Source of the DNA: Acidobacteriota bacterium | GTDB taxonomy: Bacteria > Acidobacteriota > Blastocatellia > RBC074 | Direction: 5' to 3' | NCBI GenBank assembly: GCA_019639255.1 | Contig: JAHBSF010000006.1 | Coordinates: 26,261 to 90,260, forward strand | Length of the DNA stretch: 64,000 bases | Position numbers and translations under genes: made by a program | Notes under the pieces: model-generated | Told to the model about the DNA's origin: nothing | Seen by the model: the letters and a program-made list of their open reading frames with translations, nothing else | Databases searched by the model: none | Shown here: in pieces, positions 5,481 through 61,866 of the stretch | How the letters are laid out: every line of letters starts with the position of its first letter | Position numbering within the stretch: the stretch's first letter is position 1

Positions 5481-5570
5481 GGTCTAAAGCGATCTACAGG
5501 TGATTGGTACAAAGCGTGAGACAGCAAGAGAAATAACGAAACAAACGAAATGGAACGAAAATTACGGAAG
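5481..5570. repeat. family-A element, half copy A2 (left tail plus left arm only)
   Basis: ...GTGATTGGTACAAAGCGTGAGACAGCAAGAGAAATAACGAAACAAACGAAATGGAACGAAAATTACGGAAG. The right arm is missing or decayed. Confidence 0.75.
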
Positions 5571-5598
5571 ATCGGCATTTCTGCGCCGCCCCCCCGAA

Positions 5599-5628
5599 TT
5601 GACACCCTTCAGTACGCGACGTTACAAT
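5599..5628 (+). promoter_or_regulatory. near-consensus sigma70-type promoter for tatA
   Basis: TTGACA at 5599-5604, 18-nt spacer, TACAAT at 5623-5628. Followed by SD AAGGAG at 5637-5642 and the ATG at 5649. Confidence 0.5.
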
Positions 5629-18875: not shown

Positions 18876-18955
18876 CGTCAGACTCCAACGGCCCTGCAAT
18901 TTTTATCAGTCCATAGCAGACCATAACAGACTGGTACACACAACGAGGTCCGCAA

Positions 18956-19025
18956 CTGGGTACGCACGCGCCCTCGCGTGCGTTCGGCGGCGAATGAAAG
19001 CACGCGAGGGCGCGTGCGTACCCAG
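18956..19025. repeat. family-C GC-rich hairpin repeat, copy C1
   Basis: CTGGGTACGCACGCGCCCTCGCGTGCGTTCGGCGGCGAATGAAAGCACGCGAGGGCGCGTGCGTACCCAG. About 24-bp GC stem with an 18-nt loop and no U-tract. Near-identical copy at 51465-51534 with related extended flanks. Confidence 0.85.
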
Positions 19026-19045
19026 GAATGTGTCCCAATGTTTCG

Positions 19046-19148
19046 TGGTCTGATTTAGATAACGGAACAAACGGAACAGGACGAAACATACGAATAGAAG
19101 TTCTCAATTCGTTTGTTCCGCCCTGTTCGGTTTGTTCCGTTGTCGATT
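19046..19148. repeat. family-A element A4
   Basis: TGATTTAGATAACGGAACAAACGGAACAGGACGAAACATACGAATAGAAGTTCTCAATTCGTTTGTTCCGCCCTGTTCGGTTTGTTCCGTTGTC. Sits directly beside C1. Confidence 0.8.
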
Positions 19149-19180
19149 CTTATAGTTTTACGGTCGATAAGGCTATGGTT

Positions 19181-21476: not shown

Positions 21477-21573
21477 ATTGACGGTCAACGGAACATACGA
21501 AACAAAACGGAAATTACCGAAATGTTGAATATTTCCGGCTACTTCCATAATTTCCGTCTATTTTCGTTTGTTC
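21477..21573. repeat. family-A element A5
   Basis: ...GGTCAACGGAACATACGAAACAAAACGGAAATTACCGAAATGTTGAATATTTCCGGCTACTTCCATAATTTCCGTCTATTTTCGTTTGTTCCGTCATCTCT. Contains the conserved centre TTGAATATTTCCG. Confidence 0.8.
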
Positions 21574-21613
21574 CGTCATCTCTTTAAAACCATCTTCAAT
21601 TCGCCGCTTCGCG

Positions 21614-26281: not shown

Positions 26282-26394
26282 ATAAGACGAAACAGACGGA
26301 AAGGTTGAATATTTCCGTCTGTTTCGTCTTATTTAGTTTGTTCCGTTATCTCTATTCTTTCAGCGAATTTCGAGGTTTCTACTGGAATTCGACC
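26260..26394. repeat. family-A element A6 (core plus tail) spanning the convergent stops of two genes
   Basis: GAGAGATAACGGAACAAACTAAATAAGACGAAACAGACGGAAAGGTTGAATATTTCCGTCTGTTTCGTCTTATTTAGTTTGTTCCGTTATCTCT followed by the tail ...TTCTACTGGAATTCGACC. The GT9 stop (plus strand) and the propeller-protein stop (minus strand) both lie inside it. Confidence 0.85.
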
Positions 26395-28613: not shown

Positions 28614-28647
28614 TCTCGATGACTCCTCACACGGGCTGCGGACGGCT

Positions 28648-28731
28648 CCGTAATTTTCGTTCTATTTCGTATGTTCCGTTATCTCTCTTGCTTTCTTCCG
28701 CTTTATACCAATCACCAGTGGATTGATTTGG
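28648..28731. repeat. family-A element A7 (right arm plus tail)
   Basis: CCGTAATTTTCGTTCTATTTCGTATGTTCCGTTATCTCTCTTGCTTTCTTCCGCTTTATACCAATCACCAGTGGATTGATTTGG. Confidence 0.75.
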
Positions 28732-33650: not shown

Positions 33651-33769
33651 GAGAGAGATAACAGAACAAACGAAATGAAACGAAAATTACTGACAGAGCA
33701 AATATTTCAGTCTGTTCCGTCTATTTTCGTTTGTTTAGTTATCTACAGTGGTTTCGATTTTGGTGTTAA
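33651..33769. repeat. family-A element A8 (core plus tail), its palindromic tail interrupted by B2
   Basis: GAGAGAGATAACAGAACAAACGAAATGAAACGAAAATTACTGACAGAGCAAATATTTCAGTCTGTTCCGTCTATTTTCGTTTGTTTAGTTATCT, then tail ACAGTGGTTTCGATTTTGGTGTTAA. The inverted partner of the tail resumes at 33998-34025 (CTTAACACCAAAATCCAAACCGCTGTA). Confidence 0.8.
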
Positions 33770-33997
33770 GTACTCTGTAAACAAAGTTTTTGAGTTTTCA
33801 GCCGCGGAGCGGCGAAAGATCTGTAGCCTGGTGCGTGAGCGCCAGGTCAGCAGAAAAAGAACGTTTGAGCCCTGAAAGGGCGAAAGATCTTCCGCCCCTC
33901 CGGGGCTGGTACGGCTTCTCTACACTCACCCAGGGCTCGCCGCCCTGGGCTACAGATCTTTCGCCGCTCCGCGGCTGAAAAACTCAAAAACTTTGTT
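33770..33997. mobile_element. family-B element B2 (~228 bp), inserted at the TTAA centre of a palindrome
   Basis: Same ~57-bp terminal inverted repeats as B1. The internal ~120 bp is the reverse complement of the B1 interior. Flanked by TTAA (33766-69) and TTAA (33998-34001). Confidence 0.85.
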
Positions 33998-34066
33998 TAC
34001 AGAGTACTTAACACCAAAATCCAAACCGCTGTAATATCCCGACTGTGTGTGGTTTTGATTGGTTGA

Positions 34067-37149: not shown

Positions 37150-37157
37150 AACAGGCG

Positions 37158-37320
37158 ATGCGGAAATTTGGTACGAAGCGGAAGACAGCCAGAGAGATAA
37201 CGGAACAAACGAAATGAAACGGAACAAACGAAAATATTCAACTTTTCCGTAATTTTCGGTTCCTTTCGTTTGTTCCGTTATCTCTCTTTTACGCCCCGAT
37301 GTCATGTGGTTTGATTTAAC
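37158..37320. repeat. family-A element A9 (full length with both tails)
   Basis: Left tail ...AAATTTGGTACGAAGCGGAAGACAGCCA, core GAGAGATAACGGAACAAACGAAATGAAACGGAACAAACGAAAATATTCAACTTTTCCGTAATTTTCGGTTCCTTTCGTTTGTTCCGTTATCTCTC, right tail TTTTACGCCCCGATGTCATGTGGTTTGATTTAACGG. The ftsY ATG follows 20 nt later. Confidence 0.85.
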
Positions 37321-42288: not shown

Positions 42289-42382
42289 ACAGATAACGAA
42301 ACAAACTAAACCCGACGAAAACCACGGAAATCGCCGAGTATTTCGTTTGTTCCATTTCATTCCGTCTGTTCCGTCATCTTTC
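42289..42382. repeat. family-A element A10
   Basis: CAGATAACGAAACAAACTAAACCCGACGAAAACCACGGAAATCGCCGAGTATTTCGTTTGTTCCATTTCATTCCGTCTGTTCCGTCATCTTTC. Sits between the convergent rnj and DUF2227-like genes. Confidence 0.8.
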
Positions 42383-42391
42383 TTTCCTTGT

Positions 42392-44048: not shown

Positions 44049-45032
44049 ATGCCGGAAAATTCGGGGACTGATCAGGTGAGCCAGCCGCGCGCTTACGGCG
44101 AGGATTTTCATCCACCGACGCTTGTACGGCGGGTTGTGGGGGAAAATACGTGGTTGCGCCGGGGAGATCTGCAGCCGGAAGGTGTGCTGGTGGAGTGCAA
44201 GTCAAACGCCGTAGAGCCTGAAGTGCTGCCTAATGAGGCTTCAGTGGGCGCGGCGATGCTGGCCGAGCTGGAAGCAACGGCGGCCGAGAAAACGGGTGAT
44301 GTTGTTATACTACTGCTCGGCGGGCGCGGTGGGCAAGCGCTTCACAGATTGCTCGGCGAGCGGGCGCGGAGCGGTCCCGACGAACTCATCAAGCGGCTCC
44401 GCGTATTCACGCAGGATGCGCTTGCGCCGATGCGCATGGACAACAGTTTGAGTTTCGTGCGGGATTTCGAGCGGCTTCTGGGGCCGGAATTTTTCGCGCA
44501 GGTCAAAAGCTTTACGCCGATTCGCACGGATGCCGAAGATCTGGAAAGCGAGCTTTACCACTACGTCAACGAACTGGAATCGCTCGGCGGCGTGGATATT
44601 TTCTTTCTCGGGCACGGACCCGAAGCCGCAGCGGCCTCGCACCTTGCTTATATCAGACCGAACTCGGGTGCGACTGCGGTAGACATTGCCGGGTTGATTC
44701 CGATTTCTTCGAGCATACTCGAACACCACATAACGAAATTCAGGGCCGGAGGCAGCGAGATCCGTCCCGAAGACGAATCCGAATGCCGGCGGGCTTCGCA
44801 CATTCTGACGCTAGGGCCGGCCGCGATCCTCGGCTCAAAAAAACTCGTGCAGTCGATAGTCGATGCTGATACGGCGCCCGCAAAGCGCGCAAGCTACCGG
44901 CGCGTGCGTGAAACGGTCATATCCGATGATGCGGCCGAACGCGCCCGTCAACTGGATGAAAATCCCGGATTGTGGATACGCCTGCATCCGAACGTCAGAT
45001 CGTTTGTGCTTCCGAATGTTGAAGAGGGATAA
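44049..45032 (+). CDS. glucosamine-6-phosphate deaminase / 6-phosphogluconolactonase-like (NagB/Pgl superfamily) protein
   Basis: VVILLLGGRGGQALH ... FFLGHGPEAAAASHLAY resembles the ialsGG / LGmGeDGHtAS motifs of the NagB/Pgl family. The last 3 codons (EEG) and the stop are encoded by repeat A11. Confidence 0.55.
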   Translation: MPENSGTDQVSQPRAYGEDFHPPTLVRRVVGENTWLRRGDLQPEGVLVECKSNAVEPEVLPNEASVGAAMLAELEATAAEKTGDVVILLLGGRGGQALHRLLGERARSGPDELIKRLRVFTQDALAPMRMDNSLSFVRDFERLLGPEFFAQVKSFTPIRTDAEDLESELYHYVNELESLGGVDIFFLGHGPEAAAASHLAYIRPNSGATAVDIAGLIPISSSILEHHITKFRAGGSEIRPEDESECRRASHILTLGPAAILGSKKLVQSIVDADTAPAKRASYRRVRETVISDDAAERARQLDENPGLWIRLHPNVRSFVLPNVEEG

Positions 45033-45100
45033 CGGAACAAACGAAAGGAAACGAAAATTACGGAACGGTTGTATATTTCCGTCTGTTCCGTTCTCTCTCT
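45026..45100. repeat. family-A element A11 (short variant)
   Basis: GAGGGATAACGGAACAAACGAAAGGAAACGAAAATTACGGAACGGTTGTATATTTCCGTCTGTTCCGTTCTCTCTC. Confidence 0.8.
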
Positions 45101-45117
45101 TTTCCAGGAGTAGAACA

Positions 45118-50511: not shown

Positions 50512-50523
50512 ACCTGGTTTAAT

Positions 50524-50686
50524 CGATCCACATCAGATTGGTACAAAGCGTGATAAAGCAAGAGAGATGACGGAACAAACGAAATGAAACGAAAATTACG
50601 GAAAATTTGAATATTTTTGTAGTTTCCGTCTTATTTCGTTTGTTTCGTCATCTCTCTTCGAAGTCGTGTGGAGTGATTCAATCGAG
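50524..50686. repeat. family-A element A12 (full length with both tails)
   Basis: ...CACATCAGATTGGTACAAAGCGTGATAAAGCAA, core GAGAGATGACGGAACAAACGAAATGAAACGAAAATTACGGAAAATTTGAATATTTTTGTAGTTTCCGTCTTATTTCGTTTGTTTCGTCATCTCTC, then TTCGAAGTCGTGTGGAGTGATTCAATCGAGC. Followed by TAAGGAG and the ATG at 50703. Confidence 0.85.
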
Positions 50687-50702
50687 CTAAGGAGCAACAG
50701 TT

Positions 50703-51449
50703 ATGACACAGCAACAAACGGCGGCGAATGCGCCGGCAAAACCTTGGGATTGCGCTTCGGCCGATGAACTCATTCTGAAACTGCGCGCCTATCGCGACGA
50801 GCGTCACGTCGCCGACCACCCCTTTACGCAGGCTCTGGCCGAGGGGCGCGTCAGCCGCGAGGGTGTGGTCGGATATCTGGGGCAATTCTGCGTATACGTA
50901 GAGCGCGGCGGCAAGGCGTGGCTGCCGTGGCTGCTCGGCAACGTTCCCGTAGGACTCGAATACCGACAGGCCAAAAACGTATTGCTCGAAAATCTTTGGG
51001 GTGAGTTTCACACTCCCGCCGATCACGTAGACCTGCTGCTGGATATGGCGGAAAAGGCATTCGGAGCCGACCGAAACGCGCTTTACCATTCGACGCTGCT
51101 GCCCGAAACCATCGCATTTATGCGCATAGAGGAGTATTACGCTCACGACCGTCCGTGGGTCGAAGCTATGGTGGCTCTCGGTTTCGGGCTTGAAACGCAG
51201 AGCCCGCGTTATTTCACGGCCGTGCGCGACGCGATGGTCGACAAGTACGGAATGACGGATTCGTATTATTACGATATGCACATCACGGCCGACATCGAGC
51301 ACGGAGACAGCATAGAGATGCTTATGAGGAATTACGGCAAGCCGGAAAATCGGGAATCGATGTGGCGCGCCGCTACCGAATCGATCGAAGCCTATCAGCT
51401 CTGGCACGACGGACTCTACCGCGCCTACGTCAGCGGCAAAAGACTCTGA
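50703..51449 (+). CDS. PqqC/TenA/CADD-like heme-oxygenase-fold protein ('iron-containing redox enzyme family')
   Basis: HVADHPFTQALAEGRVSREGVVGYLGQFCVYVE ... LENLWGEFHTPADHVDLLLDMAEKAFG parallels the PqqC helix-bundle signature (HPF...ENL-dE-G...H). Confidence 0.65.
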   Translation: MTQQQTAANAPAKPWDCASADELILKLRAYRDERHVADHPFTQALAEGRVSREGVVGYLGQFCVYVERGGKAWLPWLLGNVPVGLEYRQAKNVLLENLWGEFHTPADHVDLLLDMAEKAFGADRNALYHSTLLPETIAFMRIEEYYAHDRPWVEAMVALGFGLETQSPRYFTAVRDAMVDKYGMTDSYYYDMHITADIEHGDSIEMLMRNYGKPENRESMWRAATESIEAYQLWHDGLYRAYVSGKRL

Positions 51450-51464
51450 AACGCCCTAAACCGA

Positions 51465-51534
51465 ACTGGGTACGCACGCGCCCTCGCGTGCGTTCGGCTG
51501 AGAATGAAAGCACGCGAGGGCGCGTGCGTACCCA
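51465..51534. repeat. family-C GC-rich hairpin repeat, copy C2
   Basis: CTGGGTACGCACGCGCCCTCGCGTGCGTTCGGCTGAGAATGAAAGCACGCGAGGGCGCGTGCGTACCCAG. The right flank (GTTGCGGACTCCGTAGTGTGTACCA...TGTGGATTGATTTAG) is the inverted counterpart of the C1 left flank. Confidence 0.85.
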
Positions 51535-51658
51535 GTTGCGGACTCCGTAGTGTGTACCATTCTGCTGTGGATTGATTTAGGGTTTGATCCGTTATCTCAC
51601 TTCTACTGATTCCTTCGGGGAGGTATTTCTGGCGCACCAGAGTGCACAATCTGAAAGC

Positions 51659-53275
51659 ATGCAGTTTGAGCATCCGGTTGCTGAACGGCTGCTGGGTCGA
51701 TTGCTTGCGGCTCGCGCTGCACGCTACGGCGATCGGCGTTTCCTCAGTTTCAGGGGCGACCAGGAAATTTCGTACCGCGACCTGGACCTGTCGGCCAACC
51801 GTTTTGCAAACGGTCTGCGCGCCTTGGGACTCAACCACGGCGGCAAGCTCGCCGTCATGTTGCCGAACTGTCCGGAATATCTTTCGCTGCTTTTCGGAGC
51901 AGCCAGACTGGGCGCGGTCACCGTGCCGATCAATACCGCCTACAAGGGCGATCTGCTCGCACACATCATAAATAACTCCGACGCAGAAATGCTGGCGCTC
52001 GATGTCCAGTACCTGGAATCCCTGAACAATATAGCGGATCGGTTGAACAACCTCAGGACGATAATTTTATATTCTGCGGCTGAAGATGCAATTTCGGAGC
52101 CCGGCCTGCTGAAGGACAGGTACAAGTTCTACCACATCGGTTCGTTGGGAGCAGCGCTGGCGGATGAGCCCGAAGCCGATGTACGTCATACCGATCCGGT
52201 GATGATTCTTTATACGGGCGGGACGACGGGGCCGTCCAAGGGCGTAGTGATGACGCATCACTTTTATTACTTCTACGCCCGGCTGGTTGCGCAAAGCATA
52301 GGTTATCGGGAGTCGGATGTCTCCTATACCTGTATGCCGCTTTTTCACATAAACGCACAGATCGGTTCGATCGTATCGGCGTTGTATGCCGGGGCGCAGG
52401 CAGCTCTATATGAACGATTCAGCGCCGGTTCGTTCTGGGATGAGATATGCGCATCCGGGGCGACCGTTTTTCTGGGAATGGGCGCCGTAGGCAATATACT
52501 TATGAAAAACGCTCCATCGCCCGCCGACGCCGACAACAAAGTACGGCTTGCGGTCATCGTGCCGCCGCCCGGAGACCTGGAGGGTTTTGAAAAGCGGTTC
52601 GGTTTGCGGGTGATTTACGAAACTTTCGGCATGACCGAAGGTCTGATCATTCCGCCGAAACTGGTAGAACCGCGACGCCCAGGTTGTTGCGGAAAGCCCG
52701 TGCCGGATTACGAGGTGCAGATTGTAGACGACGACGATTCCGCGCTCCCCGCGCGCGAGGTCGGAGAAATAGTCATGCGTCCGCGCGCACCCTACACGAT
52801 GATGTCGGGCTATTACAAAATGCCCGAAGCCACGCTCGAAGCCTTTCGCAATCTGTGGTTCCACACCGGCGACCACGGTTACTTCGACGAAGAGGGATAC
52901 CTTTACTACGTGGGCCGAAAAAAGGACGCAATCCGCAGGCGGGGCGAAAACATCTCCGCCTTCGAAATCGAAAGTGCGGTCAATCAGCATCCTGCGGTAC
53001 TCGAATCCGCCGCAATCGCGGCTCCGTCGGAACTGGGCGAAGACGAGGTGAAGATTGCAGTCGTATTGAAACCGGGCATGCAGGTTGGGCATGAAGAGCT
53101 GATCAGATTCTGCGAAGCGAGGATGGCGTATTTCATGGTTCCGCGATTCGTGGAATTCAAGGACGCGCTGCCCAAAAATCCCTCGCAGCGGATCGAAAAG
53201 TACAAGCTGCGCGCCGAGGGCGTGAACGCCGCGACGTGGGATCGCGAAAAAGCGGGCGTAAAACTCAAGAGATGA
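51659..53275 (+). CDS. AMP-binding acyl-CoA synthetase (FadD/long-chain fatty-acid--CoA ligase-like)
   Basis: YTGGTTGPSKGV (AMP-binding P-loop), the EGYLYYVGRKKD hinge, and C-terminal GEEL / KYKLR motifs. Start taken at the first ATG; the track ORF begins upstream at a TTG. Confidence 0.85.
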   Translation: MQFEHPVAERLLGRLLAARAARYGDRRFLSFRGDQEISYRDLDLSANRFANGLRALGLNHGGKLAVMLPNCPEYLSLLFGAARLGAVTVPINTAYKGDLLAHIINNSDAEMLALDVQYLESLNNIADRLNNLRTIILYSAAEDAISEPGLLKDRYKFYHIGSLGAALADEPEADVRHTDPVMILYTGGTTGPSKGVVMTHHFYYFYARLVAQSIGYRESDVSYTCMPLFHINAQIGSIVSALYAGAQAALYERFSAGSFWDEICASGATVFLGMGAVGNILMKNAPSPADADNKVRLAVIVPPPGDLEGFEKRFGLRVIYETFGMTEGLIIPPKLVEPRRPGCCGKPVPDYEVQIVDDDDSALPAREVGEIVMRPRAPYTMMSGYYKMPEATLEAFRNLWFHTGDHGYFDEEGYLYYVGRKKDAIRRRGENISAFEIESAVNQHPAVLESAAIAAPSELGEDEVKIAVVLKPGMQVGHEELIRFCEARMAYFMVPRFVEFKDALPKNPSQRIEKYKLRAEGVNAATWDREKAGVKLKR

Positions 53276-53281
53276 CCGGAA

Positions 53282-54451
53282 GTGCGCGAATTGAAAGGCA
53301 AACTGGCGATTGCCGGTGCAGCAACAAGCGAGGTCGGACGTGTGGCCGGTCTTTCGGCTACTCAAATGTGCGTCAAGGCATCCCGCCTCGCAATGATCGA
53401 CGCGGGACTCTCGGCGGCCGACGTTGACGGCGTGATCACGGCGAACTCGTGGTCCGAGCCGCACTACTATCACGCCGAATGGATTGCCGAATATCTGGGC
53501 GCAAGACCCAGATATTGCTGGACTGCGGCAACGGGCGGTGGAACGATCGTAGCCGCCCTTCACCACGCGGCGAGCGCAATTGAAACCGGTCTTTGTCAAA
53601 CGGTGCTTATAGCGGCGGCCGACAACTGGCTGAGTGCGTTTTCACGTGAACGGATGGTCGAACTGATGGCCGCCAACGCGGGGCATCCGCAGTTCGAGGT
53701 TCCATACGGCAGCTTTGTGCCTGCTCTTTACGCTCTTTTTGCGCAGGCTCACTCTCAGAAGTACGGCGTGAGCGAGCGCCAGTACGCCCGTGTAGCGGTG
53801 GCTGCGCGCCGACATGCAGCGTTGAACGCCGAGGCTCAGATGCGCGAACCCATAACGGTTGACGATGTATTGACTTCGAAACCGGTGGCGTCGCCCCTGC
53901 GGTTGCTCGATTGCGCCCTGATTTCGGATGGGGGCGCGGCGGTCGTGATGACGAGCGCACAGCGCGCTCGCGATTTGAAAAACCTGCCCGTTTACCTTTT
54001 GGGTGCAGGTGAAGCGCACGAGCACGAACACGTCACGCAGGCCGTGTGTTTGCACAGAACGGCGGCAACCGAATCGGGCGCCGCAGCATTCGCAATGGCG
54101 GGACTGAAGCCCTCGGATATGGATTGCGCGATGCTGTACGATCCGTTCACCTTCGCCGTTGTAATGTTTCTTGAAGATCTGGGATTTTGCGCAAGAGGCG
54201 AGGGCGGCGCGTTTGTCGAGGACGGTCAGATCGAACTTGGCGGAAGCCTCCCGGTAAACACCCACGGAGGGTTGCTGTCGTTTGCTCATCCCGGCAATCC
54301 GGGCGCGTTGTTTCACATAGTAGAAGCGGTGCGGCAGTTGCGCGGCGAGTGCGGAGAACGCCAGGTCCGGAAAGCTTCAACCGCGCTCGTTCACGCCGAG
54401 GGGGGCATAATGTCCACCCACGCGACCGTCATTCTGGGCAATGCAAAATAG
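53282..54451 (+). CDS. thiolase-like protein, SCP-x / nsLTP type (no canonical N-terminal Cys-acyl site)
   Basis: 389 aa thiolase fold with C-terminal NTHGGLLSFAHPGNPG (thiolase C-terminal GG motif) and GEAHEHEH. Typical of DUF35-partnered thiolases. GTG start. Confidence 0.8.
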   Translation: MRELKGKLAIAGAATSEVGRVAGLSATQMCVKASRLAMIDAGLSAADVDGVITANSWSEPHYYHAEWIAEYLGARPRYCWTAATGGGTIVAALHHAASAIETGLCQTVLIAAADNWLSAFSRERMVELMAANAGHPQFEVPYGSFVPALYALFAQAHSQKYGVSERQYARVAVAARRHAALNAEAQMREPITVDDVLTSKPVASPLRLLDCALISDGGAAVVMTSAQRARDLKNLPVYLLGAGEAHEHEHVTQAVCLHRTAATESGAAAFAMAGLKPSDMDCAMLYDPFTFAVVMFLEDLGFCARGEGGAFVEDGQIELGGSLPVNTHGGLLSFAHPGNPGALFHIVEAVRQLRGECGERQVRKASTALVHAEGGIMSTHATVILGNAK

Positions 54452-54470
54452 TTTCGGGGTAACCAGGATC

Positions 54471-54761
54471 ATGCCGATTTACGAATACCAGTGCGAAAGC
54501 TGCGATCTCATATACGAGGCGATGCAGTCGATCAGCGCCGCCCCGCACGAAGTTTGCCCCGAATGCAGCGGGCGGCTCGAACGAATATTTTCACCGCCGT
54601 CATTGAATCTCGGGCATTTCGTAAGCGGAACTGCCGAAAAACACACGCGCAGGCTGACCTTCGAGCAGCAGGCCAAAGAGGAAGAGGACCGATTGCTCAA
54701 GCACGCGGAAAAGACAGGGATCAAATACAGCGATCTGTTCGAAGATCACGAGCATCATTGA
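54471..54761 (+). CDS. FmdB-family zinc-ribbon protein
   Basis: MPIYEYQCESCDLIYE...CPECSG (CxxC...CxxC), 96 aa, from Met11 of track ORF 54441..54761. Confidence 0.75.
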   Translation: MPIYEYQCESCDLIYEAMQSISAAPHEVCPECSGRLERIFSPPSLNLGHFVSGTAEKHTRRLTFEQQAKEEEDRLLKHAEKTGIKYSDLFEDHEHH

Positions 54762-54820
54762 TCGTTTCAGTCCCGGAGCCGGCGAAGTCAGAAAACGCAG
54801 AGTTCTGGATATTTCCTGAA

Positions 54821-55582
54821 ATGCGCGAAACGGGTTTTGAACAACTGATCTATGAAAAACAGGGACCCGTGGTCAGAATTACGCTCAATCGCCCGGATCA
54901 GCTAAACGCGCTCAGCATAGAGTTGTACACAGAACTCGGTGACGCAGTTTTGCGCGCCGGGAGCGATGCCGAGGCTCAGATCATTGTCATAACCGGTGCG
55001 GGACGGGCTTTTTCAAGCGGCGGCGACATCAAGCAGGGTGATCGCGTAAATCGCGAAACTCCGCAGATATTCGCACAGGCGTCGAAACGCATGCTATCGG
55101 CGATCATCAAGAGCGATTGCGTTGTCATCGCACAGGTCAACGGTACGGCGCAGGCCGGAGGATTGTTGATTGTCGCCGCCTGCGATCTGGCGATCGCTGC
55201 GGAGGATGCTACCTTCAAATGCCCCGAAGCGTTGATAGGGCTTTACGAACCGTACAGTCACGCGCTGCTCGCGCCGATCATCGGATCTCGCAGAACAAAG
55301 CAGCTTTTGATTGCCTGCGAAACAATCGGCGCCATCGACGCCGAACGAATGGGACTTGTCAACCGTGTAGTGCCGCGCGAGGATCTCGGCGCTGCTACCG
55401 ACAAACTCATCGAGCGTGTACTTGCAACGGGTCCCCGCGCCCGCGCCATGTTCAAGCGAATGATCAACCGTTCTATTGAAGAGTTCGACGAAAATATAGT
55501 TATAGAGGCGCTCGGTTCGGAAGAGGGACAGGAAGGTATGGCTGCATTCGCCGAAAAACGGTTGCCCAAATGGCGGCAATAA
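54821..55582 (+). CDS. enoyl-CoA hydratase/isomerase (crotonase) family protein
   Basis: VVRITLNRPDQLNAL...VITGAGRAFSSGGDI...VAQVNGTAQAGGL...A-E, the crotonase oxyanion-hole motifs. The real start is at Met111 of track ORF 54491..55582; the upstream part overlaps FmdB out of frame. Confidence 0.85.
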   Translation: MRETGFEQLIYEKQGPVVRITLNRPDQLNALSIELYTELGDAVLRAGSDAEAQIIVITGAGRAFSSGGDIKQGDRVNRETPQIFAQASKRMLSAIIKSDCVVIAQVNGTAQAGGLLIVAACDLAIAAEDATFKCPEALIGLYEPYSHALLAPIIGSRRTKQLLIACETIGAIDAERMGLVNRVVPREDLGAATDKLIERVLATGPRARAMFKRMINRSIEEFDENIVIEALGSEEGQEGMAAFAEKRLPKWRQ

Positions 55583-55620
55583 TCACGGGCAATGGGCCTT
55601 GCTTTGAACTTGCTTTGAAA

Positions 55621-56055
55621 ATGACTGTAGTCGCTGAAAAAAGTCGGAAACCGATCAGAGAAGGGTTGTTTGCGGAAGATGCGAACGGCGTGAGTCTGAT
55701 CGGCGGGCGGTGTCGGGAATGCGCTGAAATCGTATTCCCCGCCAATCCCTTTTGCCCGCGGTGCTGTCGCGAGACGACCGAACCCGTTGCACTCTCTCGG
55801 CGCGGAGTGCTTTACAGCTTCACCGTGCAGCGTTTCAAACCGCCGCCGCCATATCGCGGACCCGATCCTTTCGTCCCGTACGGCGTAGGTCTGATAGAAC
55901 TGCCCGAGGGGCTGCGCATAACTTCGGTGCTCAAGGCGGAACCGGACGACCTTCGCGTCGGGATGGAAATGGAGCTAGTGGTCGAGGGGTTTTTCGAGGA
56001 CGAGGACGGCAACGAAATACTGGGCTACAAGTTTCGCCCGGTGGAAGAGAGATAA
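55621..56055 (+). CDS. DUF35 Zn-ribbon + OB-fold protein (thiolase partner; ChsH2-C-term/IpfE-like)
   Basis: GRCRECAEIVFPANPFCPRCC (rubredoxin-like Zn ribbon) followed by an OB-fold segment. The last codons and stop (...EER*) are encoded by repeat A13. Confidence 0.75.
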   Translation: MTVVAEKSRKPIREGLFAEDANGVSLIGGRCRECAEIVFPANPFCPRCCRETTEPVALSRRGVLYSFTVQRFKPPPPYRGPDPFVPYGVGLIELPEGLRITSVLKAEPDDLRVGMEMELVVEGFFEDEDGNEILGYKFRPVEER

Positions 56056-56170
56056 CGGAACAAACTAAATAAGTCGGAAACTACGAAAATATTCAACTTT
56101 TCCGTGATTTTTGTTTCATTTCGTTTGTTTCGTTATCTCTTATGCCCCAGTGACGAGCAGAGTGATTTAG
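56047..56170. repeat. family-A element A13 (core plus right tail)
   Basis: GAGAGATAACGGAACAAACTAAATAAGTCGGAAACTACGAAAATATTCAACTTTTCCGTGATTTTTGTTTCATTTCGTTTGTTTCGTTATCTCT, then TATGCCCCAGTGACGAGCAGAGTGATTTAG abutting the ATG at 56171. Confidence 0.85.
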
Positions 56171-57307
56171 ATGAGAGACGTTTATGTAATCGGTGTAGGG
56201 CTGCATCCCTTCGGTCGTTTCGGCGACAAGGATGTCATCGAGATAGGGCGCGAAGCCGTTGTAGCCGCGCTCGAAGACTCGGGAGTTGCATGGAAGGATG
56301 TGGAATCGGCTTACTGCGGCACGGTATTCGCCGGGCCGATGGCGGGCAACAAGGTGCTGGCGCGCGTCGGTTTGACCGGATTGCCTATTATGAATCTTGA
56401 AAATGCATGTGCAAGCGGCGGATCGGCGCTGCGGCTGGCATTTCAGGATGTGGCGAGCGGTTTCTGCGATATTGCGCTGGCGTTCGGTTTCGAAAAGATG
56501 CCGCGCGGTTTTATCGCCGGAAATCCCAACGACTGGTTTGCGACGATGGGAATGGCGGTCAATCCGCAGTATTTTGCGCTCAACGCTCGCCGGCATATGG
56601 CGGATTACGGAACAACCGAGGACCATCTTGTCAGGGTTTCGGTCAAGAATCACCGCAACGGCGCTCTCAATCCGTATGCTATGTATCGGAAGGTGATGAG
56701 CTACGAAGAAATCGCCAACTCGACGATGGTGAACGATCCGCTGCGATTGCTGATGCTGTGCGCGCCGAATGAGGGCGGCGCCGCCGTCGTGGTGGCGAGT
56801 CGGGAGGCGGCTAAACGGTATACGACGCGGCTGATTCGCCTGGCGTCGGTTGTGCTGAAGTCGCCGCTCTACGGAACGGCGGAGGTTCCATACATCGCTG
56901 TAAGTTCACAAGTAGAAGCCCCGAGCGTGACGCGCACGGCATCCGAGGCGGCTTACGAAGCGGCCGGCATCGGCCCCGGCGATCTCGATCTGGTAGAACT
57001 TCAGGATACGGATTCTGCGGCCGAGATCATATACAGCGAAGAACTCGGATTATGCGGGCGCGGCGAAGGTGCACGGCTGCTCGACGACGGCGCCACCGAA
57101 ATCGGCGGGCGCTTGCCCGTGAATCCCAGCGGCGGACTTTTGTCGAAGGGTGAACCGCTCGGCGCCTCTGCACTCGGACAGGTTGCGGAAGTCGTATGGC
57201 AGTTGCGCGGTGAGGCCGGCGCCCGCCAGGTGAGCGATGCGCGCGTCGGTTTGACGCACGTATACGGCGCGCTCGGCAATTGTGCGGTGAGCATACTTCA
57301 ATGTTGA
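56171..57307 (+). CDS. thiolase-like protein, SCP-x type (second copy)
   Basis: MRDVYVIGVGLHPFGRF...NLENACASGGSALRLA (active-site Cys) ... NPSGGLLSKGEPLGASAL... and the thiolase C-terminal domain. Confidence 0.85.
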   Translation: MRDVYVIGVGLHPFGRFGDKDVIEIGREAVVAALEDSGVAWKDVESAYCGTVFAGPMAGNKVLARVGLTGLPIMNLENACASGGSALRLAFQDVASGFCDIALAFGFEKMPRGFIAGNPNDWFATMGMAVNPQYFALNARRHMADYGTTEDHLVRVSVKNHRNGALNPYAMYRKVMSYEEIANSTMVNDPLRLLMLCAPNEGGAAVVVASREAAKRYTTRLIRLASVVLKSPLYGTAEVPYIAVSSQVEAPSVTRTASEAAYEAAGIGPGDLDLVELQDTDSAAEIIYSEELGLCGRGEGARLLDDGATEIGGRLPVNPSGGLLSKGEPLGASALGQVAEVVWQLRGEAGARQVSDARVGLTHVYGALGNCAVSILQC

Positions 57308-57367
57308 TACTGCGTTTGGAATCGGCCTTAAATATTTGCGGCCTAATGTGCAAAGGAGGAATCTGAT

Positions 57368-58096
57368 ATGTCAGCGAGATTACAACCCGCCACCGAGGCA
57401 ATGCCGGTGGATCAGTTTCTTGGAGAACTGCTATCATTCATCGAAGAGCATCATCCGAAAAACAGCAAAATGATTCGCGCCATCTCTGAGGGAACTGCGT
57501 CGATGCAGGCCATACAGGGATTCGCAAGGGAGTTTTACGCCTACTCGGCGTTTTCCCTACGGCCGTTCGCTGCACTTGTTTCGAATGCGCCCGACGATTT
57601 TTCCTTGAAGCTGATGCTTCAGAACTTCGCCGGCGAGGCCGGGTTTCTGGGCACGCCGTCGCATCCGGTCGTATTCCGCCAGTTTGCTCTCGCTGCGGGA
57701 CTCAGCGACGAAGACCTCGATACTCACATTCCGCTTCCGAGTACGCTGGGTGGAATGTTCGGACTGGATCATTTTCTGCGGGGACCGTTTGATGAGGCGG
57801 TAGCCGGGTTTGGTTATGCGATCGAGGGGCCGGCGGCAGCCTGGGGGAAGCTCCTGCACGACGGATTCAAGAACAAATACAACTTCGACGAAAAAGCCAT
57901 GCAGTTCTGGGTCATTCATCTCGAAGAGGACGAATCGGGCGAGGGCCTCGAAGCGCAGCACGGCGAAAATGCCAGAAAACTGATGCAGCGCTTTGCGTCA
58001 ACTCTCGAACAGCAGACGCGCATTCGCAAGGCGTTCGTATACTCGGCGCTTGTTTTTGAAAACTTCTGGAACGGAATGGACCGGTTTCTTGAGTAG
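57368..58096 (+). CDS. PqqC/TenA-like heme-oxygenase-fold protein (second copy)
   Basis: HHPKNSKMIRAISEGTASMQAIQGFAREFYAYSAFSLRPFAALVSNAPDD...LQNFAGEAG...SHPVVFRQFALAAGL closely parallels the PqqC HPF...ENL.EE.G...SH...F...GL pattern. Confidence 0.65.
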   Translation: MSARLQPATEAMPVDQFLGELLSFIEEHHPKNSKMIRAISEGTASMQAIQGFAREFYAYSAFSLRPFAALVSNAPDDFSLKLMLQNFAGEAGFLGTPSHPVVFRQFALAAGLSDEDLDTHIPLPSTLGGMFGLDHFLRGPFDEAVAGFGYAIEGPAAAWGKLLHDGFKNKYNFDEKAMQFWVIHLEEDESGEGLEAQHGENARKLMQRFASTLEQQTRIRKAFVYSALVFENFWNGMDRFLE

Positions 58097-58160
58097 CGGC
58101 CGCCCGGCGCCTGAAGCACCAGACAAACGGATATCGAGGGGACCCCAAGGAGAAATGACA

Positions 58161-59507
58161 ATGAGTGTAGCCGATGAATGCGTAAAGAACCTGTACCATC
58201 CCGAAGTTCAGACGATGCCTCGCGAACAGTTGCGTGAACTTCAGAACGAAAAGCTGCGCCGCGAAATAGACCGTATATGGAATCAGCCGATTTCATTCTT
58301 CAAGCGCAAGATGGAATCCGTAGGATTGCGTCCCGAACACATTCGCACCGTTGACGATCTCAGGAATTTCCCGCCAACAGTCAAGGATGAGCTTCGGGTA
58401 AACGAAGAAAGCTACCCACCGTTCGGCGATTATCGCGGAGCACCCGTAGAGAAGTGCATTCGCCTGGGTCGTACTACGGGAACAACGGGCAAGCCCTCAT
58501 CGCTGCTATGGACGCAGCGCGATTATGATATCGATGCTCTGATTTCCGCGCGTTCGATGTACCGGTGCGGCATCCGCCCCGGCATGAAAATGACGCACAC
58601 TCATCCGGGCGGACTCTACGCGGGCGCCGACCGCCTCGGCTCCGTCGTCGAAATGATGGGCGTGATGAACGTGCCTATGGGGCCGCCGCTATCGGATGAC
58701 ATAATAAAGAGCCATCTCGAATTGTGGAAACAGCTCAAACCCGAAGTGTATGTGCTGTTCGGCCCCGTCGTGCTGCGGTATCACGAAGCTGCGCTGAAAC
58801 TCGGCTACGATCCGCACAAGGATATCGGGATGGACATACTGCTCATAGGCGAGGCCGCGTGCGCCTATGAATCGACTCGTAAGAAGTACGAGAAGTTCTT
58901 CGACTGCGAGATTCACAACCTCAACGGCTCGCTCGAAATCGGCGTGATTATGGCAAGCGACGACCGGTTCCATACCGGGATGTATGCGCCCGAGGATTTC
59001 GTAATTCTCGAAGTCATTGATCCCGACACGAATGAACCTACGCCGCCCGGCGAGCGCGGATACCTGTGTTTGACGACCCTCGACCGCGACAACATAGTCG
59101 TTCGCTATAACCTCGAAGACCTGGTGAGCGTCAATCCCGAACCGTCGCCGTCGGCGGAAACCCACACCAGGTTTTACTGGCACGGCCGGCGTCAGGAAGT
59201 TGTGAACGTTAACGGCAAGGAGATTCTGCCCGTGGACGTGATGGTTGCGCTCAATGAAATCGAGGAACTCGGCGAGCGGCCCGTCGAGTTTCAGATGGAG
59301 CGTTGGGGCAAGACGCAGGACAGGCTCAAGGTGAATATGGAGTATGACCCGGCGCGCGTATCGGATACAACGGCGTTCTCCGACAAGGTTAGAGCGCACT
59401 TTCATCGGAAACTCGGCATCGATGTAGTGCCGGAGCTCGTGGACTCGGCGGTTTACCGCTCCACGTACAAGCCGATGCGCGTCATAGACGTCAAACACGA
59501 AGAATAA
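58161..59507 (+). CDS. PaaK-like adenylate-forming CoA ligase (phenylacetate-CoA ligase / coenzyme F390 synthetase family)
   Basis: N-terminal LREIDRIW...ESVGLRPEHIRTVDDLRNFPPTVKDEL and TTGTTGKPS (the PaaK P-loop variant). No large C-terminal AMP-binding_C domain. From Met57 of the track ORF, with SD AAGGAG 8 nt upstream. Confidence 0.8.
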   Translation: MSVADECVKNLYHPEVQTMPREQLRELQNEKLRREIDRIWNQPISFFKRKMESVGLRPEHIRTVDDLRNFPPTVKDELRVNEESYPPFGDYRGAPVEKCIRLGRTTGTTGKPSSLLWTQRDYDIDALISARSMYRCGIRPGMKMTHTHPGGLYAGADRLGSVVEMMGVMNVPMGPPLSDDIIKSHLELWKQLKPEVYVLFGPVVLRYHEAALKLGYDPHKDIGMDILLIGEAACAYESTRKKYEKFFDCEIHNLNGSLEIGVIMASDDRFHTGMYAPEDFVILEVIDPDTNEPTPPGERGYLCLTTLDRDNIVVRYNLEDLVSVNPEPSPSAETHTRFYWHGRRQEVVNVNGKEILPVDVMVALNEIEELGERPVEFQMERWGKTQDRLKVNMEYDPARVSDTTAFSDKVRAHFHRKLGIDVVPELVDSAVYRSTYKPMRVIDVKHEE

Positions 59508-59510
59508 AAA

Positions 59511-59566
59511 TACAGATAACGGAATATACGAAAAAGAACGGAACAAACGGAAAGCAAGGAGAACAA
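59511..59566. repeat. family-A element A14 (half copy, left arm)
   Basis: CAGATAACGGAATATACGAAAAAGAACGGAACAAACGGAAAGCAAGGAGAA. Its end supplies the SD (AAGGAGAA) of the next gene. Confidence 0.7.
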
Positions 59567-59568
59567 TA

Positions 59569-60798
59569 ATGAGCGCCGTTCAATTCGCGCACGACACAGC
59601 AGACGTGCTCTCGGCACTTCAGCGGCAGATTGCACACAATTACACGATTCCTTTTTACCGCAAACGCATGGATGAGTGGGGCGTCAGGCCCGAGGATATC
59701 CGCAGCTTCGATGACTTTCGGCGCATTCCCATGATGAAGCGCGAAGATCAGGTATCGAGCGTCGATGAAGATCCCCCGCTCGGCAGCATGTGGAACCCCG
59801 ACGCCGTTCTGATTACCCATACTCCGGCGCCGGGCATAGGTCTTGTTACCGAGTATCATACAAGAGCCGATATCGACGCCTGCGCCGTGGCCGTAGCGAA
59901 GCGGCTGGCTGCCGCCGGGGTGACGAAAGACGACATTGTAGTCATCAACTCGAGCTACCACCTGGTTATATCCGGACATACGGGACAGGCGGCATTCACC
60001 GAACTCGGCGCCAAGGTTTTGCCTCTGGGACCCGGCGAGACCGAACGACAGGTGGAGATTATCAACCGCCTCGGCGCCACGGTGCTTTTCGGGTTTCCGA
60101 GTTATTGCCTGAAACTTGCCGAAGCCGGAGCGAGGGGCAAAATCCGCGTGATGATCGCGGGCGGCGAGCCGTTCAGCTCAATAGAAGGCCGGCGCGAACA
60201 GGTTAAAAACGCGTTCGGGGGCGGGATTACCGCCGTAGATCTTTACGGATTGAGCGGCTTCAACGTCGTTGCGATGGAAGACCGGCGCGAAAACGGGATG
60301 CGTATTCTGGAAGATGAGGTCTACGCCGAAATCATCGATCCCGAAACCGGCGACCTGCTGCCTTACGGCGAGCGCGGAGAACTGGTGCTGACGCACGTGA
60401 ACCGTCAGGCGATGCCGTTTATGCGTTTCAGAACCGGAGACCTGACGGTGCTGGACCGCACCGACGGCGAGCTTTATATGCCCAACGGCGTGTTCGGGCG
60501 CACGGGCGAGATGTACCGCGTCAAGGGATTGAAGTTCTATCCCTCGGTCGCGGTGTTGTGCCTTGCGGGGATTCAGGGAGTACATCCGCTCAAGTACCGA
60601 TTCACGATTTCGAGGCCTTCCGGGACTACCGATTACGTCAAATTCGCGGTGCAGGGCAATCCCTCAGCCGTGGATGCTGAAGTGGTCAAAAAGAAGATCG
60701 GGCTCAGAACCCTTTTTGAACCCAACGAAGTCGAAATCATCGAGCAGTGGGTTGACGGCCCGACTGTAGTGGACGAGCGCGGCGGAGTAGATCGTTGA
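59569..60798 (+). CDS. PaaK-like adenylate-forming CoA ligase (second copy)
   Basis: YRKRMDEWGVRPEDIRSFDDFRRIPMMKREDQ ... SGHTGQAAF ... same architecture as the upstream paralogue. About 409 aa. Confidence 0.8.
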   Translation: MSAVQFAHDTADVLSALQRQIAHNYTIPFYRKRMDEWGVRPEDIRSFDDFRRIPMMKREDQVSSVDEDPPLGSMWNPDAVLITHTPAPGIGLVTEYHTRADIDACAVAVAKRLAAAGVTKDDIVVINSSYHLVISGHTGQAAFTELGAKVLPLGPGETERQVEIINRLGATVLFGFPSYCLKLAEAGARGKIRVMIAGGEPFSSIEGRREQVKNAFGGGITAVDLYGLSGFNVVAMEDRRENGMRILEDEVYAEIIDPETGDLLPYGERGELVLTHVNRQAMPFMRFRTGDLTVLDRTDGELYMPNGVFGRTGEMYRVKGLKFYPSVAVLCLAGIQGVHPLKYRFTISRPSGTTDYVKFAVQGNPSAVDAEVVKKKIGLRTLFEPNEVEIIEQWVDGPTVVDERGGVDR

Positions 60799-60802
60799 CA
60801 GG

Positions 60803-60876
60803 AGAACGCGGAATACGCTGAATTTAGCGAGCGGATAGACTTTTCCGTTATATTCCGCTTATTCCGCGTTCTCTCT
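60803..60876. repeat. divergent palindromic element A15 (variant arms GAGAACGCGGAATA...TATTCCGCGTTCTC)
   Basis: GAGAACGCGGAATACGCTGAATTTAGCGAGCGGATAGACTTTTCCGTTATATTCCGCTTATTCCGCGTTCTCTC. Confidence 0.6.
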
Positions 60877-60900
60877 GCAATCGCCATACGGGATAATCGG

Positions 60901-61674
60901 ATGAGCGGAAACGTGCTGGAAAAATTCAGACTCGATGGTAAGACGGCCATCGTAACGGGTGCGAGCCGCGGGCTCGGGCGCGCAATCGCGGTTGCGTTTG
61001 CCGAAGCGGGAGCCGATGTAGCTGTAGCGGCGCGCACCGAGGCCGCAATCGCTGAAACCGCTGAAGCCGTAAGGAGCCTCGGGCGGCGCGCCCTTGCAGT
61101 GGCGTGCGATGTACACAGCAGCGCGTCGGTGGCCTCGATGGTCGAGGGCGTTGTATCCGAATTCGGTAAGGTCGACATACTGATGAACAACGCGGGCGGC
61201 GGCGATATGCGGCCGCTTGTGGATACCGACGAGTCTGAATGGATGCGCATCATTGATCTCAATCTGAATTCGACCTACCGGCTGTGCCGCGCCGTGGGGC
61301 CGCATATGATCGCCAGGCGCTACGGCCGGATAATCAATATGTCGTCGACCTACGGGCTAGTGGGAGTCAAAAATGTAGTCCCGTATTGCGCTGCCAAGGG
61401 AGCGATTATCCAGTTTACGCGGGCGCTGGCGCTCGAATGGGCCGAGCACAACATATCGGTGAATGCGCTTGCGCCCGGTTATTTCTACACCGAACGCACG
61501 AGCCGCGTCTTCGACGATCCGACGCTCGGCGCAAAATTCACCGCCTCGATTCCTGCAGGACGTGTGGGCCAAAACGACGAACTTGCGCCGCTCGTGGTGT
61601 ATCTCGCATCGGACGCGTCGCCCTATATGACCGGCAGCGTCATAGTTATCGACGGGGGCATTACGGCTGCCTGA
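60901..61674 (+). CDS. SDR-family oxidoreductase (FabG-like)
   Basis: TGASRGLGRAIA (TGxxxGxG), NNAGG, and the S...Y(CAAK) catalytic motif. Confidence 0.85.
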   Translation: MSGNVLEKFRLDGKTAIVTGASRGLGRAIAVAFAEAGADVAVAARTEAAIAETAEAVRSLGRRALAVACDVHSSASVASMVEGVVSEFGKVDILMNNAGGGDMRPLVDTDESEWMRIIDLNLNSTYRLCRAVGPHMIARRYGRIINMSSTYGLVGVKNVVPYCAAKGAIIQFTRALALEWAEHNISVNALAPGYFYTERTSRVFDDPTLGAKFTASIPAGRVGQNDELAPLVVYLASDASPYMTGSVIVIDGGITAA

Positions 61675-61785
61675 ATCCGCATATACGGTCTTGTTTTTTG
61701 GGGATATGAGGTGACTGGCCAATCAGTCATGACGGAAATGAAAATGAAGCGGAAGAGGGAGCAGCGGGAATTGCGGAAAAGGTGA

Positions 61786-61866
61786 ATGGTTCCGCTGGTT
61801 CCGTCAATTTTCGTTTGTTCCGTTATCTCTCTTTTACGTCCCGGGATCATCTGGATTGATCTGGAC
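61786..61866. repeat. family-A element A16 (right arm plus tail; left arm decayed)
   Basis: GTGAATGGTTCCGCTGGTTCCGTCAATTTTCGTTTGTTCCGTTATCTCTCTTTTACGTCCCGGGATCATCTGGATTGATCTGGACG. Confidence 0.75.

Follow-up and report, generated by a model that had tools for sequence, protein, structure and literature searches.

Hairpin elements in a conserved acyl-CoA operon

Do the palindromic elements that lie between the genes of an acyl-CoA-metabolism operon set the expression of its segments, or have they simply settled in its junctions? This question is raised by a 64-kb stretch of DNA (the window, taken at its full length) from a member of the Blastocatellia, probably of the Pyrinomonadaceae. A first-pass annotation had proposed that such hairpins can act as messenger stabilisers, processing sites or partial terminators and could thereby set differential expression across the operon. 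According to the analysis reported here, they are more probably (at roughly 0.7) members of two families of high-copy interspersed palindromic mosaic DNA repeats, comparable to MITEs (miniature transposable elements with inverted repeats) and to REPIN and BIME, which secondarily invaded an older conserved operon. All coordinates are positions within the window, and loci named L followed by a number are the comparison loci that were fetched. Gene calls were taken from the NCBI metagenome-assembled genome (MAG) GCA_026129895.1 (contig JAHCHF010000006.1), 99.4-99.7% identical to the window.

From these gene calls and Pfam, the plus-strand cluster comprises 13 genes and 12 junctions. Genes 1-7 encode, according to Pfam, an amidohydrolase, haem-oxygenase-like 1, an AMP-ligase, thiolase-like 1, a Zn-ribbon, an enoyl-CoA hydratase and a ChsH2-like OB protein; they are followed by thiolase 2, haem-oxygenase-like 2, PaaK-like 1, PaaK-like 2, an SDR and an ACAD (genes 8-13, also from Pfam). 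Repeat-derived DNA was found in six of the 12 junctions (50.5-61.9 kb), and all gaps of at least 100 nt are among these six. The six sequences that had been named (A12 before haem-oxygenase-like 1, C2 before the AMP-ligase, A13 before thiolase 2, A14 before PaaK-like 2, A15 before the SDR and A16 before the ACAD) all lie at the junctions to which they had been assigned, although half of the inter-cistronic gaps are occupied and not most of them, as had been stated. They consist of four A palindromes (A12, A13, A15 and A16), the non-folding half element A14, and C2, a GC-rich hairpin of another family.

The core of the A family is formed by two inverted arms of about 44 nt around a variable loop, and reads AAGAGAGATRACGGAAC-AAACGRAAT-RAACGRAAM-NNACGGAAA, loop, reverse complement or, in an alternative consensus form, AAGAGAGATRACGGAACAAACGRAAT.AAACGRAA..TACGGAAA, loop, reverse complement. 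Each arm therefore carries four ACGGAA-type (ACGRAA) motifs with alternating 9- and 10-nt spacing, and the loop of the window genome is RKTGAATAT, in either orientation. Many copies possess an outer module of about 40 nt on one side (v1, AAATCRATCCAC....GATTGGTACAAAGCGTGA.AAAGC) and others a second module on the opposite side (v2, TTTTACGYCCCG..TCATSTGGWTTGATTTA); both modules end in a common AAATCRAWCCACA-like terminus, and some copies have these ends inverted. The elements are non-coding and measure about 100 nt for the core and about 170-190 nt with modules, the entire core being an inverted repeat, terminal inverted repeats (TIRs) included. The parts found in the operon are as follows:

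50521-50559, plus strand: outer module v1 of A12 (AATCGATCCACATCAGATTGGTACAAAGCGTGATAAAGC), repeat family D8
50560-50658, plus strand: core palindrome of A12, inverted repeat I5 (45-nt arms, 84% complementary, 9-nt loop)
50659-50686, plus strand: right tail of A12, v2-like (GTCGTGTGGAGTGATTCAATCG)
51464-51537, plus strand: C2, GC-rich hairpin of a family other than A, D10 and I10 (32-nt arms, 97% complementary)
51547-51582, minus strand: outer module in reverse orientation beside C2, D12; the same hairpin-module composite lies at 18954-19056
51590-51605, plus strand: possible remnant of an A right end (TCCGTTATCTCACTTC), assigned by reading the sequence
56045-56143, plus strand: core palindrome of A13, I9 (42-nt arms, 76% complementary; arms and fold given for 56048-56140)
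56144-56170, plus strand: tail of A13, formed by outer module v2 (...CAGTGACGAGCAGAGTGATTTAG) and immediately followed by the thiolase ATG 56171
59512-59555, plus strand: A14, half element consisting of just the left arm and its four ACGRAA motifs, D4 and D6
60802-60873, plus strand: A15, diverged A-type palindrome (AGAGAACGCGGAATAAGCGGAAT...), I16 (28-nt arms, 86% complementary)
61732-61833, plus strand: core of A16, in which the left arm has decayed and the loop and right arm are intact, D3 (78% to the reference copy)
61834-61860, plus strand: tail of A16, outer module v2 (TTACGTCCCGGGATCATCTGGATTGAT), D9 (88% to 37264-37315)

The description of these sequences as hairpins holds for five of the six, which fold as stable stems, and fails for A14, which consists of a single arm. 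As RNA, the sense strand gave -72.1 kcal/mol for C2 (z -13.7), -54.4 for A12 (z -10.6), -40.3 for A15 (z -7.0), -39.7 for A16 (z -3.0, marginal) and -34.9 for A13 (z -6.3), while A14 reached -1.1 kcal/mol and formed no hairpin. Both arms of A12 carry four ACGRAA motifs, and its module v1 aligns with the modules at 5487 and 37151 and, as reverse complement, with those at 1222-1260 and 28690-28729. C2 is 97% identical to the copy at 18954-19025. The composite of C hairpin, module and A palindrome at 18954-19150 recurs at 51464-51608, where its A hairpin is missing. Some elements lie very close to translation signals. The tail of A12 is followed by the Shine-Dalgarno sequence (SD) AAGGAG (50689-50694) and by ATG 50703, as correctly read in the first-pass annotation (TAAGGAG...ATG), and the abutment ...AGTGATTTAG|ATG at 56171 could likewise be confirmed in the sequence. 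The TAA stop of the ChsH2-like gene (56053-56055) falls within the left arm of A13, and A14 is placed between the PaaK-like 1 stop (59507) and the SD AAGGAG at 59556-59561.

Orthologous operons

About 20 metagenomic or MAG loci encode this operon with an unchanged gene order, at 65-89% protein identity and with short junctions. No A element was found in any of them, nor in 656 kb of related loci. Since the elements are absent from some 20 orthologous operons of identical gene order, they are late, lineage-specific insertions. Besides, these operons work without the elements, and an inter-cistronic position is therefore no proof of function. An assembly artefact was rejected as an explanation, the same arrangement being present in the independent NCBI MAG (99.4-99.7%) and in a 98% relative, with operon synteny across the elements.

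The clearest example is the gap between PaaK-like 1 and PaaK-like 2, which measures 61 nt in the window. Nine orthologs have a gap of -1 to 20 nt here, and in all of them AAAGGAG immediately follows the stop codon. Because element-free operons have this SD directly 3' of the stop, the SD that follows A14 is ancestral, and the proposal that A14 supplies the SD for the start at 59569 has to be abandoned. By the same comparison the SD behind A12 is ancestral too. At the junction between the ChsH2-like gene and thiolase 2, stop and start overlap (ATGA or GTGA) in six of 13 orthologs. This overlap is lost in the window, where A13 occupies the junction: the stop is now the TAA of GATAACGG, and the tail of the protein has been replaced, ending in …FRPVEER* where relatives have 12-20 further residues. 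Only at this place, A13/thiolase, might an element contribute the weak ribosome-binding context.

The distribution among close relatives varies from junction to junction. The window, the NCBI strain and L169, a 98% relative that carries A13-A16, all possess A13; it is absent from L170, L171 and L064, which keep the ATGA overlap, and from others. In L170, an 89% relative without A13, the contig ends in an A-like arm between PaaK-like 2 and the SDR, i.e., at the position of A15, and starts with an outer-module-like end between thiolase-like 1 and the Zn-ribbon, a junction that is empty in the window. L171, an 88% relative, has no A element. Decay is also visible, A14 and A15 being degraded in L169, in which the outermost A14 motif has decayed. 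Other lineages possess, at junctions of this operon, unrelated inserts that fold strongly (z -4 to -16), the junction between PaaK-like 2 and the SDR being recurrent:

L064, 12081-12411: unrelated folding insert
L081: unrelated folding insert between PaaK-like 2 and the SDR
L065: unrelated folding insert between thiolase 2 and haem-oxygenase-like 2
L171, 8843-8980: unrelated folding insert
L170, 4869-4977: unrelated folding insert

The orthologs also bear on gene starts. Homology with L064 places the ACAD start at ATG 61880 and not at TTG 61856, and that of the AMP-ligase probably at CTG 51629 (SD GGAGG, 51619-51623) and not at ATG 51659. An operator-like inverted repeat, GGTGACTGGCCAATCAGTCA, was noticed upstream of the ACAD at 61710-61729, and A16 sits between it and the ACAD start. 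Because this repeat is conserved in the orthologous loci L064, L068, L072 and L169, it suggests a putative internal regulated promoter at this position.

DNA-level changes between close strains

Comparison of closely related strains revealed changes within the elements. The centre of A13 (about 42 nt, loop and inner arms) is reverse-complemented with 2-3 mismatches between the window (56077-56118) and L169 (3-44). In A9, about 20 differences over about 110 nt separate two strains that are 99.5% identical (window 37157-37264, L057 13091-13198), and the A9 of the other strain resembles both an inverted centre and the copy A12. In C2, the strains differ at two positions, 51483 and 51518, which pair with each other, as C:G in the window and as A:T in the NCBI strain. 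Taken as sequence comparisons, such changes point to hairpin-mediated inversion or template switching together with ectopic conversion, and not to the conservation of a functional RNA. Otherwise, the density of single-nucleotide polymorphisms was similar, 0.68% in elements vs 0.52% elsewhere. Furthermore, the NCBI strain harbors a classical MITE of 177 nt inside A5 (L061 4633-4809), with a 19-bp TIR (CTCGACTTTGTCCATTTTT) and a 5-bp duplication (ACCGA); it is absent from the window, where the empty site lies at 21516-21520 and which contains no other copy.

Copies in the window and in other genomes

When the arm pattern GATRACGRAACAAACKRAA was searched with at most two mismatches, 25 matches were obtained in the window for 0.01 expected. 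Elements occupy 17 of its 53 junctions, namely 14 of 46 tandem, 2 of 3 convergent and 1 of 4 divergent ones, and their neighbours are housekeeping genes of every kind. Hence, with a third of the window junctions occupied, the operon is not special as an element site. The copies outside the operon are listed below, with the strand where one was assigned:

1102-1260, minus strand: A1, full element whose outer module v1 contains the IleRS stop; about 10 nt separate the hairpin from the LspA start
5487-5572, plus strand: A2, half element (module v1 and left arm) in a divergent gap
14353-14435: A3, short-armed variant abutting an Acido-Lenti-1 composite palindrome (I17, I20)
18954-19150: hairpin C1, module and full palindrome A4 (I7, I12)
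21478-21586: A5, split by the 177-nt MITE in the NCBI strain
26253-26361: A6, 50-nt arms, 96% complementary, between convergent genes (I3)
28630-28729, minus strand: A7, half element (right arm and module v1)
33651-33749: A8, abutting the second Acido-Lenti-1 composite (33744-34033)
37151-37320, plus strand: A9, full element with modules on both sides; central 100 nt or so replaced or inverted between strains
42291-42384: A10, between the convergent RNase J and DUF2227 genes
45022-45103: A11; the stop TAA (45030-45032) of the upstream open reading frame (ORF) lies inside GATAACGG, followed by an SD and ATG 45118

Directly after A2 and before tatA (5649), a near-consensus promoter-like site (TTGACA-17-TACAAT, 5596-5624) was read by eye. 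The composite palindromes that A3 and A8 abut measure 240-290 nt (14114-14353 and 33744-34033) and are about 91% identical to each other. Their arms correspond to the three Rfam Acido-Lenti-1 hits of the window (14148-14194, minus strand; 14277-14323, plus strand; 33800-33846, minus strand). In this window the Acido-Lenti-1 small RNA (sRNA) looks like a module of an interspersed repeat.

When one genome per species was scanned, palindromic copies were found in many Blastocatellia and Acidobacteriota MAGs, with differing loops and outer modules. The core conserved across genomes reads AAGAGA-GATRACGGAAC-AAACGGAAAT-AACGGAAC-AAACGGAAA, and conservation ends sharply beyond its borders and within the loop. 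These copies lie in 25 tandem, 5 convergent and 1 divergent contexts. Two MAG sets labelled Heliobacteriaceae/Heliomicrobium (contigs CAYWDW01 and CAZXZU01; loci L002, L006, L019, L026, L032, L034, L041, L045, L049 and L053-L055) also contain copies. This label is probably wrong, because these MAGs have outer modules in common with Blastocatellia MAGs and encode outer-membrane proteins of the acidobacterial CarboxypepD_reg/OMP_b-brl_4 type. No true copy was present in the viral contigs searched, the plasmid collection gave no match to the element, and orthologues of 40 queried window genes upstream of the cluster were not found in the other element-bearing loci. The literature searched contained no paper with the motif and no description of such repeats in Blastocatellia. 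The A family is thus apparently undescribed, but of a known kind. Short-read contigs of the same strain from Logan SRR12908343 (L056, L058, L060 and L062), identical to the window, begin and end inside A, C or Acido-Lenti-1 repeats; because they do, these repeats can be said to fragment assemblies of the organism, as expected of high-copy repeats.

Probable invasion of the operon and its alternatives

On the preferred reading, the elements behave as non-coding, selfish or neutral units at the DNA level, inserted at different times into pre-existing junctions of the conserved 13-gene operon. They survive where they are harmless, mostly between a stop codon and the old SD, and remain subject to ongoing dynamics, i.e., inversion of hairpin centres, copy-to-copy conversion and decay to half elements. 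Five of the six are presumably included in the polycistronic mRNA, as stems of 28-45 bp without U-tracts, where by analogy with Correia and REP (repetitive extragenic palindromic) elements they would most likely serve, incidentally, as sites for double-strand-specific (RNase III-type) cleavage or as barriers to 3'-exonucleases. As a further incidental effect, A13 would uncouple translation between the ChsH2-like gene and the thiolase. It is plausible that the elements incidentally affect how mRNA is processed, how stable it is and how translation is coupled, and any effect on expression is probably a by-product and not a designed control system. Conservation of the phased ACGGAA motifs without copy-specific pairing suggests, moreover, that a protein recognizes them; the periodic motif most likely marks recognition by a protein that spreads or binds the elements, be it a mobilizing enzyme or a host factor.

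Several observations weigh against such an invasion. Neither the flanks, about 290 kb, nor the 1.5 Mb of fetched loci yielded an autonomous parent or a transposase associated with the elements, and a cognate insertion sequence with the same ends was not found in the flanks. Mobility is for this reason deduced only from presence and absence between lineages. Between two strains that are 99.5% identical, no insertion polymorphism of A elements was detected. Neither in the window nor in other genomes was a direct repeat evident at the core boundaries that could be a target-site duplication, the available filled and empty sites being strongly diverged. The recurrence of unrelated hairpin inserts might mean that a hairpin at a junction is advantageous; at the least, it is well tolerated. 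In all six operon elements the sense strand folds better, with more G:U pairs (21 vs 7), an excess that could reflect selection at the RNA level. Finally, the arms co-vary across genomes (0.209 vs 0.127 in shuffles), which is compatible with a structural constraint without being specific for it.

As regards a mobilizing protein, the only genes to recur next to elements belong to abundant paralogous groups (TonB-like outer-membrane proteins, ABC ATPases, SDRs and GT2), and a tblastn search with E. coli RayT found no RAYT-like gene, which would be single-copy, in the 1.5 Mb of fetched loci. In L009 (7138-7296) an A arm is incomplete, and 78 nt further on an ORF starts at the contig end (MSFYTKLARKPKQFLTLTGVELGEFQR, 27 aa, no Pfam hit). 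This ORF may belong to an insertion sequence next to or inside the element, or to a parent element.

A first alternative, which we consider unlikely, is that the elements are selected cis-acting RNA hairpins. They would have been put to use in stabilising mRNA, in its processing or in partial termination, and would give the segments of the operon different expression levels. This view is the one taken in the first-pass annotation. It agrees with the five very stable stems in the sense transcript, with the downstream SDs being left free, with the preferred folding of the sense strand with its surplus of G:U pairs, and with the independent acquisition of unrelated hairpins at the same junctions, especially between PaaK-like 2 and the SDR. 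However, sense-strand folding was favoured in 9 of 13 elements of the window and evenly divided (12 vs 12) among 24 elements from other genomes, and the local excess can be explained by the coding strand being G-rich (GC skew +0.07 to +0.12). A strand bias at the RNA level is suggestive in the operon, therefore, and absent from the 24 elements of other genomes. Pairing itself was examined with a self/non-self arm test on the outermost anchors of 27 elements from six genomes. The left arm was as complementary to the right arms of other copies (0.815) as to its own (0.811; permutation p 0.71), and no copy-specific compensatory base change was found within these genomes. The covariation pooled across genomes stems from subfamilies, each specific to a genome, whose two arms share one variant. 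The absence of the elements from orthologous operons also speaks against selected hairpins, as does the presence of the same repeats at a third of all junctions, be they tandem, convergent or divergent and whatever the gene function. Besides, A14 cannot fold, and both A14 and A15 are decaying in the 98% relative. Differential expression set by the elements thus finds no computed support, and several results argue against a selected role.

Searches for known signals gave a similar picture. None of the six elements is followed by a U-tract, their tails reading CTCTCTTCGAAG, CCCAGTTGCGG, CTCTTATGCCCC and so on, and no promoter-like (sigma-70-like) pair of hexamers was found at the elements; intrinsic terminators or promoters carried by them were accordingly rejected for want of consensus sites. 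At the gathering score, Rfam 15 reported only Acido-Lenti-1, elsewhere in the window, and in the operon region only hits to generic miRNA-precursor hairpins far below threshold, so a known RNA family was discarded as well. A terminator or an evolved role in setting expression is unlikely.

In a second alternative, which we regard as improbable, the inverted arms with their four ACGGAA motifs would be binding arrays in double-stranded DNA, i.e., platforms on which a protein specific to the lineage would bind, whether nucleoid-associated, regulatory or of a domesticated transposase-like type. The potential to form hairpins would then be secondary, and this proposal is partly compatible with an invasion by mobile repeats. 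It agrees with the conservation of motif and 9/10-nt phasing across genomes whose loops and outer modules differ, with an arm complementarity that is wholly explained by similarity to the family consensus, and with the persistence of half elements, which are single arrays. Against it stand the lack of a candidate protein or recurrent neighbouring gene among those found, the decay of the outermost A14 motif in the 98% relative, an SNP density that is not reduced in the elements, and a placement in which no rule relative to promoters is visible. A bolder version, less probable still, would make the ACGGAA palindromes more than junk, namely platforms for a conserved Blastocatellia-specific protein, for example a domesticated transposase or a nucleoid factor. 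With centres that flip at a high rate, they would be genome-wide switchable insulators or processing modules between cistrons. If this were true, the repeated, independent hairpin inserts at the same junctions would represent selection for such modules.

It is very improbable that the elements are transcription terminators, possibly bidirectional, marking the ends of transcription units: they do occupy two of the three convergent gaps of the window, follow outer-membrane-protein genes directly in other genomes and the aminoacyl-tRNA-synthetase genes IleRS (A1) and AlaRS (A8) in the window, in a region where canonical terminators are not enriched (25 found vs 17 +/- 4.8 expected), but no T-run follows any of them, A14 has no stem, and the operon that contains them is tight by ancestry and coupled in part at translation, with intact, conserved genes downstream of the elements.

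An invasion by mobile palindromic repeats thus remains the preferred explanation. The analysis documents an abundant repeat family in Blastocatellia, which are under-studied soil bacteria. Its architecture is unusual in that a 6-nt motif, phased at 9-10 nt, forms inverted arrays, the outer modules are specific to each genome and the centres flip. Such elements create or replace stop codons, destroy translational coupling and break short-read assemblies, and they could mislead the prediction of sRNAs and terminators. If RNA is indeed processed at the elements, the operon would offer a natural experiment on the rewiring of polycistronic expression by hairpins that invade it.

Comparison with known systems

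An Acidobacteria-specific clade of RAYT-like genes, termed TIRYT, has been described together with families of TIR repeats (TIRtrons) (Di Nocera et al., 2013; PMC3733652). In that work the TIRs commonly carry the motif GGGGWSAS, are linked to tyrosine transposases of the IS200/IS605 type and occur as singles, dimers and clusters (PMC3733652). These families provide a precedent for moderately abundant long inverted-repeat families in Acidobacteria. The A elements differ from them in having no GGGGWSAS, and no TIRYT gene lies beside an A element in the DNA examined. The TIRYT clade is nevertheless the obvious lead for a mobilizing protein. An integron attC site or cassette array was considered and rejected: the ends AGATAAC and GTTATCT misfit R'' (RYYYAAC) and R' (GTTRRRY), and the gene order is conserved in about 20 operons.

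The analogy with REP and Correia elements drawn in the first-pass annotation is apt in kind, all being high-copy interspersed palindromic repeats in transcribed intergenic DNA. As in REPIN, REP and BIME of Proteobacteria, the A elements are extragenic, and a pair of inverted units makes up a hairpin of about 100 nt; singlets, here the half elements, exist besides inverted doublets, and units combine with other modules into mosaics. Both are found within operons, are transcribed and are often the targets of other insertion sequences, as illustrated here by the 177-nt MITE in A5. REP doublets are mobilised by RAYT tyrosine transposases. A REP unit is an imperfect palindrome of 20-40 nt with a GTAG (or CGTC) tag at one end, whereas the A arms, of about 44 nt, are direct arrays of periodic ACGGAA at 9-10 nt and not self-palindromes. 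They carry no GTAG tag, CGTC occurring only in the GATGACGG variant, in about 50% of arms. REP sequences are usually species-specific, unlike the A core, which is conserved across several species.

With the Correia (CREE/NEMIS) elements of Neisseria and with ERIC/IRU of enterobacteria, the A elements share the form of a palindrome of about 100-150 nt inside transcription units, yielding long double-stranded RNA stems, as well as a position near start codons and presence or absence between related strains. RNase III processing is documented for Correia elements. In contrast, the A family has no sequence similarity to them and no detectable TA or other target-site duplication, outward promoter hexamers were not found, and its internal periodic sub-repeats are not known from Correia or ERIC elements. 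BOX elements of Streptococcus pneumoniae, built of boxA-boxB(n)-boxC modules of about 45-59 nt, are comparable in that they too are modular (their ends are conserved and enclose internal sub-repeats in varying number), intergenic and able to form hairpins. However, they are not simple two-arm palindromes of 9-10-nt motifs, and their sequence and host phylum are unrelated.

Lastly, the arm-bounded flips of the centre in A13 and A9 and the paired changes in C2 resemble the minute inversions of non-coding chloroplast DNA and the template switching at quasipalindromes in E. coli. These are mutational processes, unlike the A elements, which form a family. Hairpin-associated minute inversion or template switching is the likely mechanism of the centre flips.

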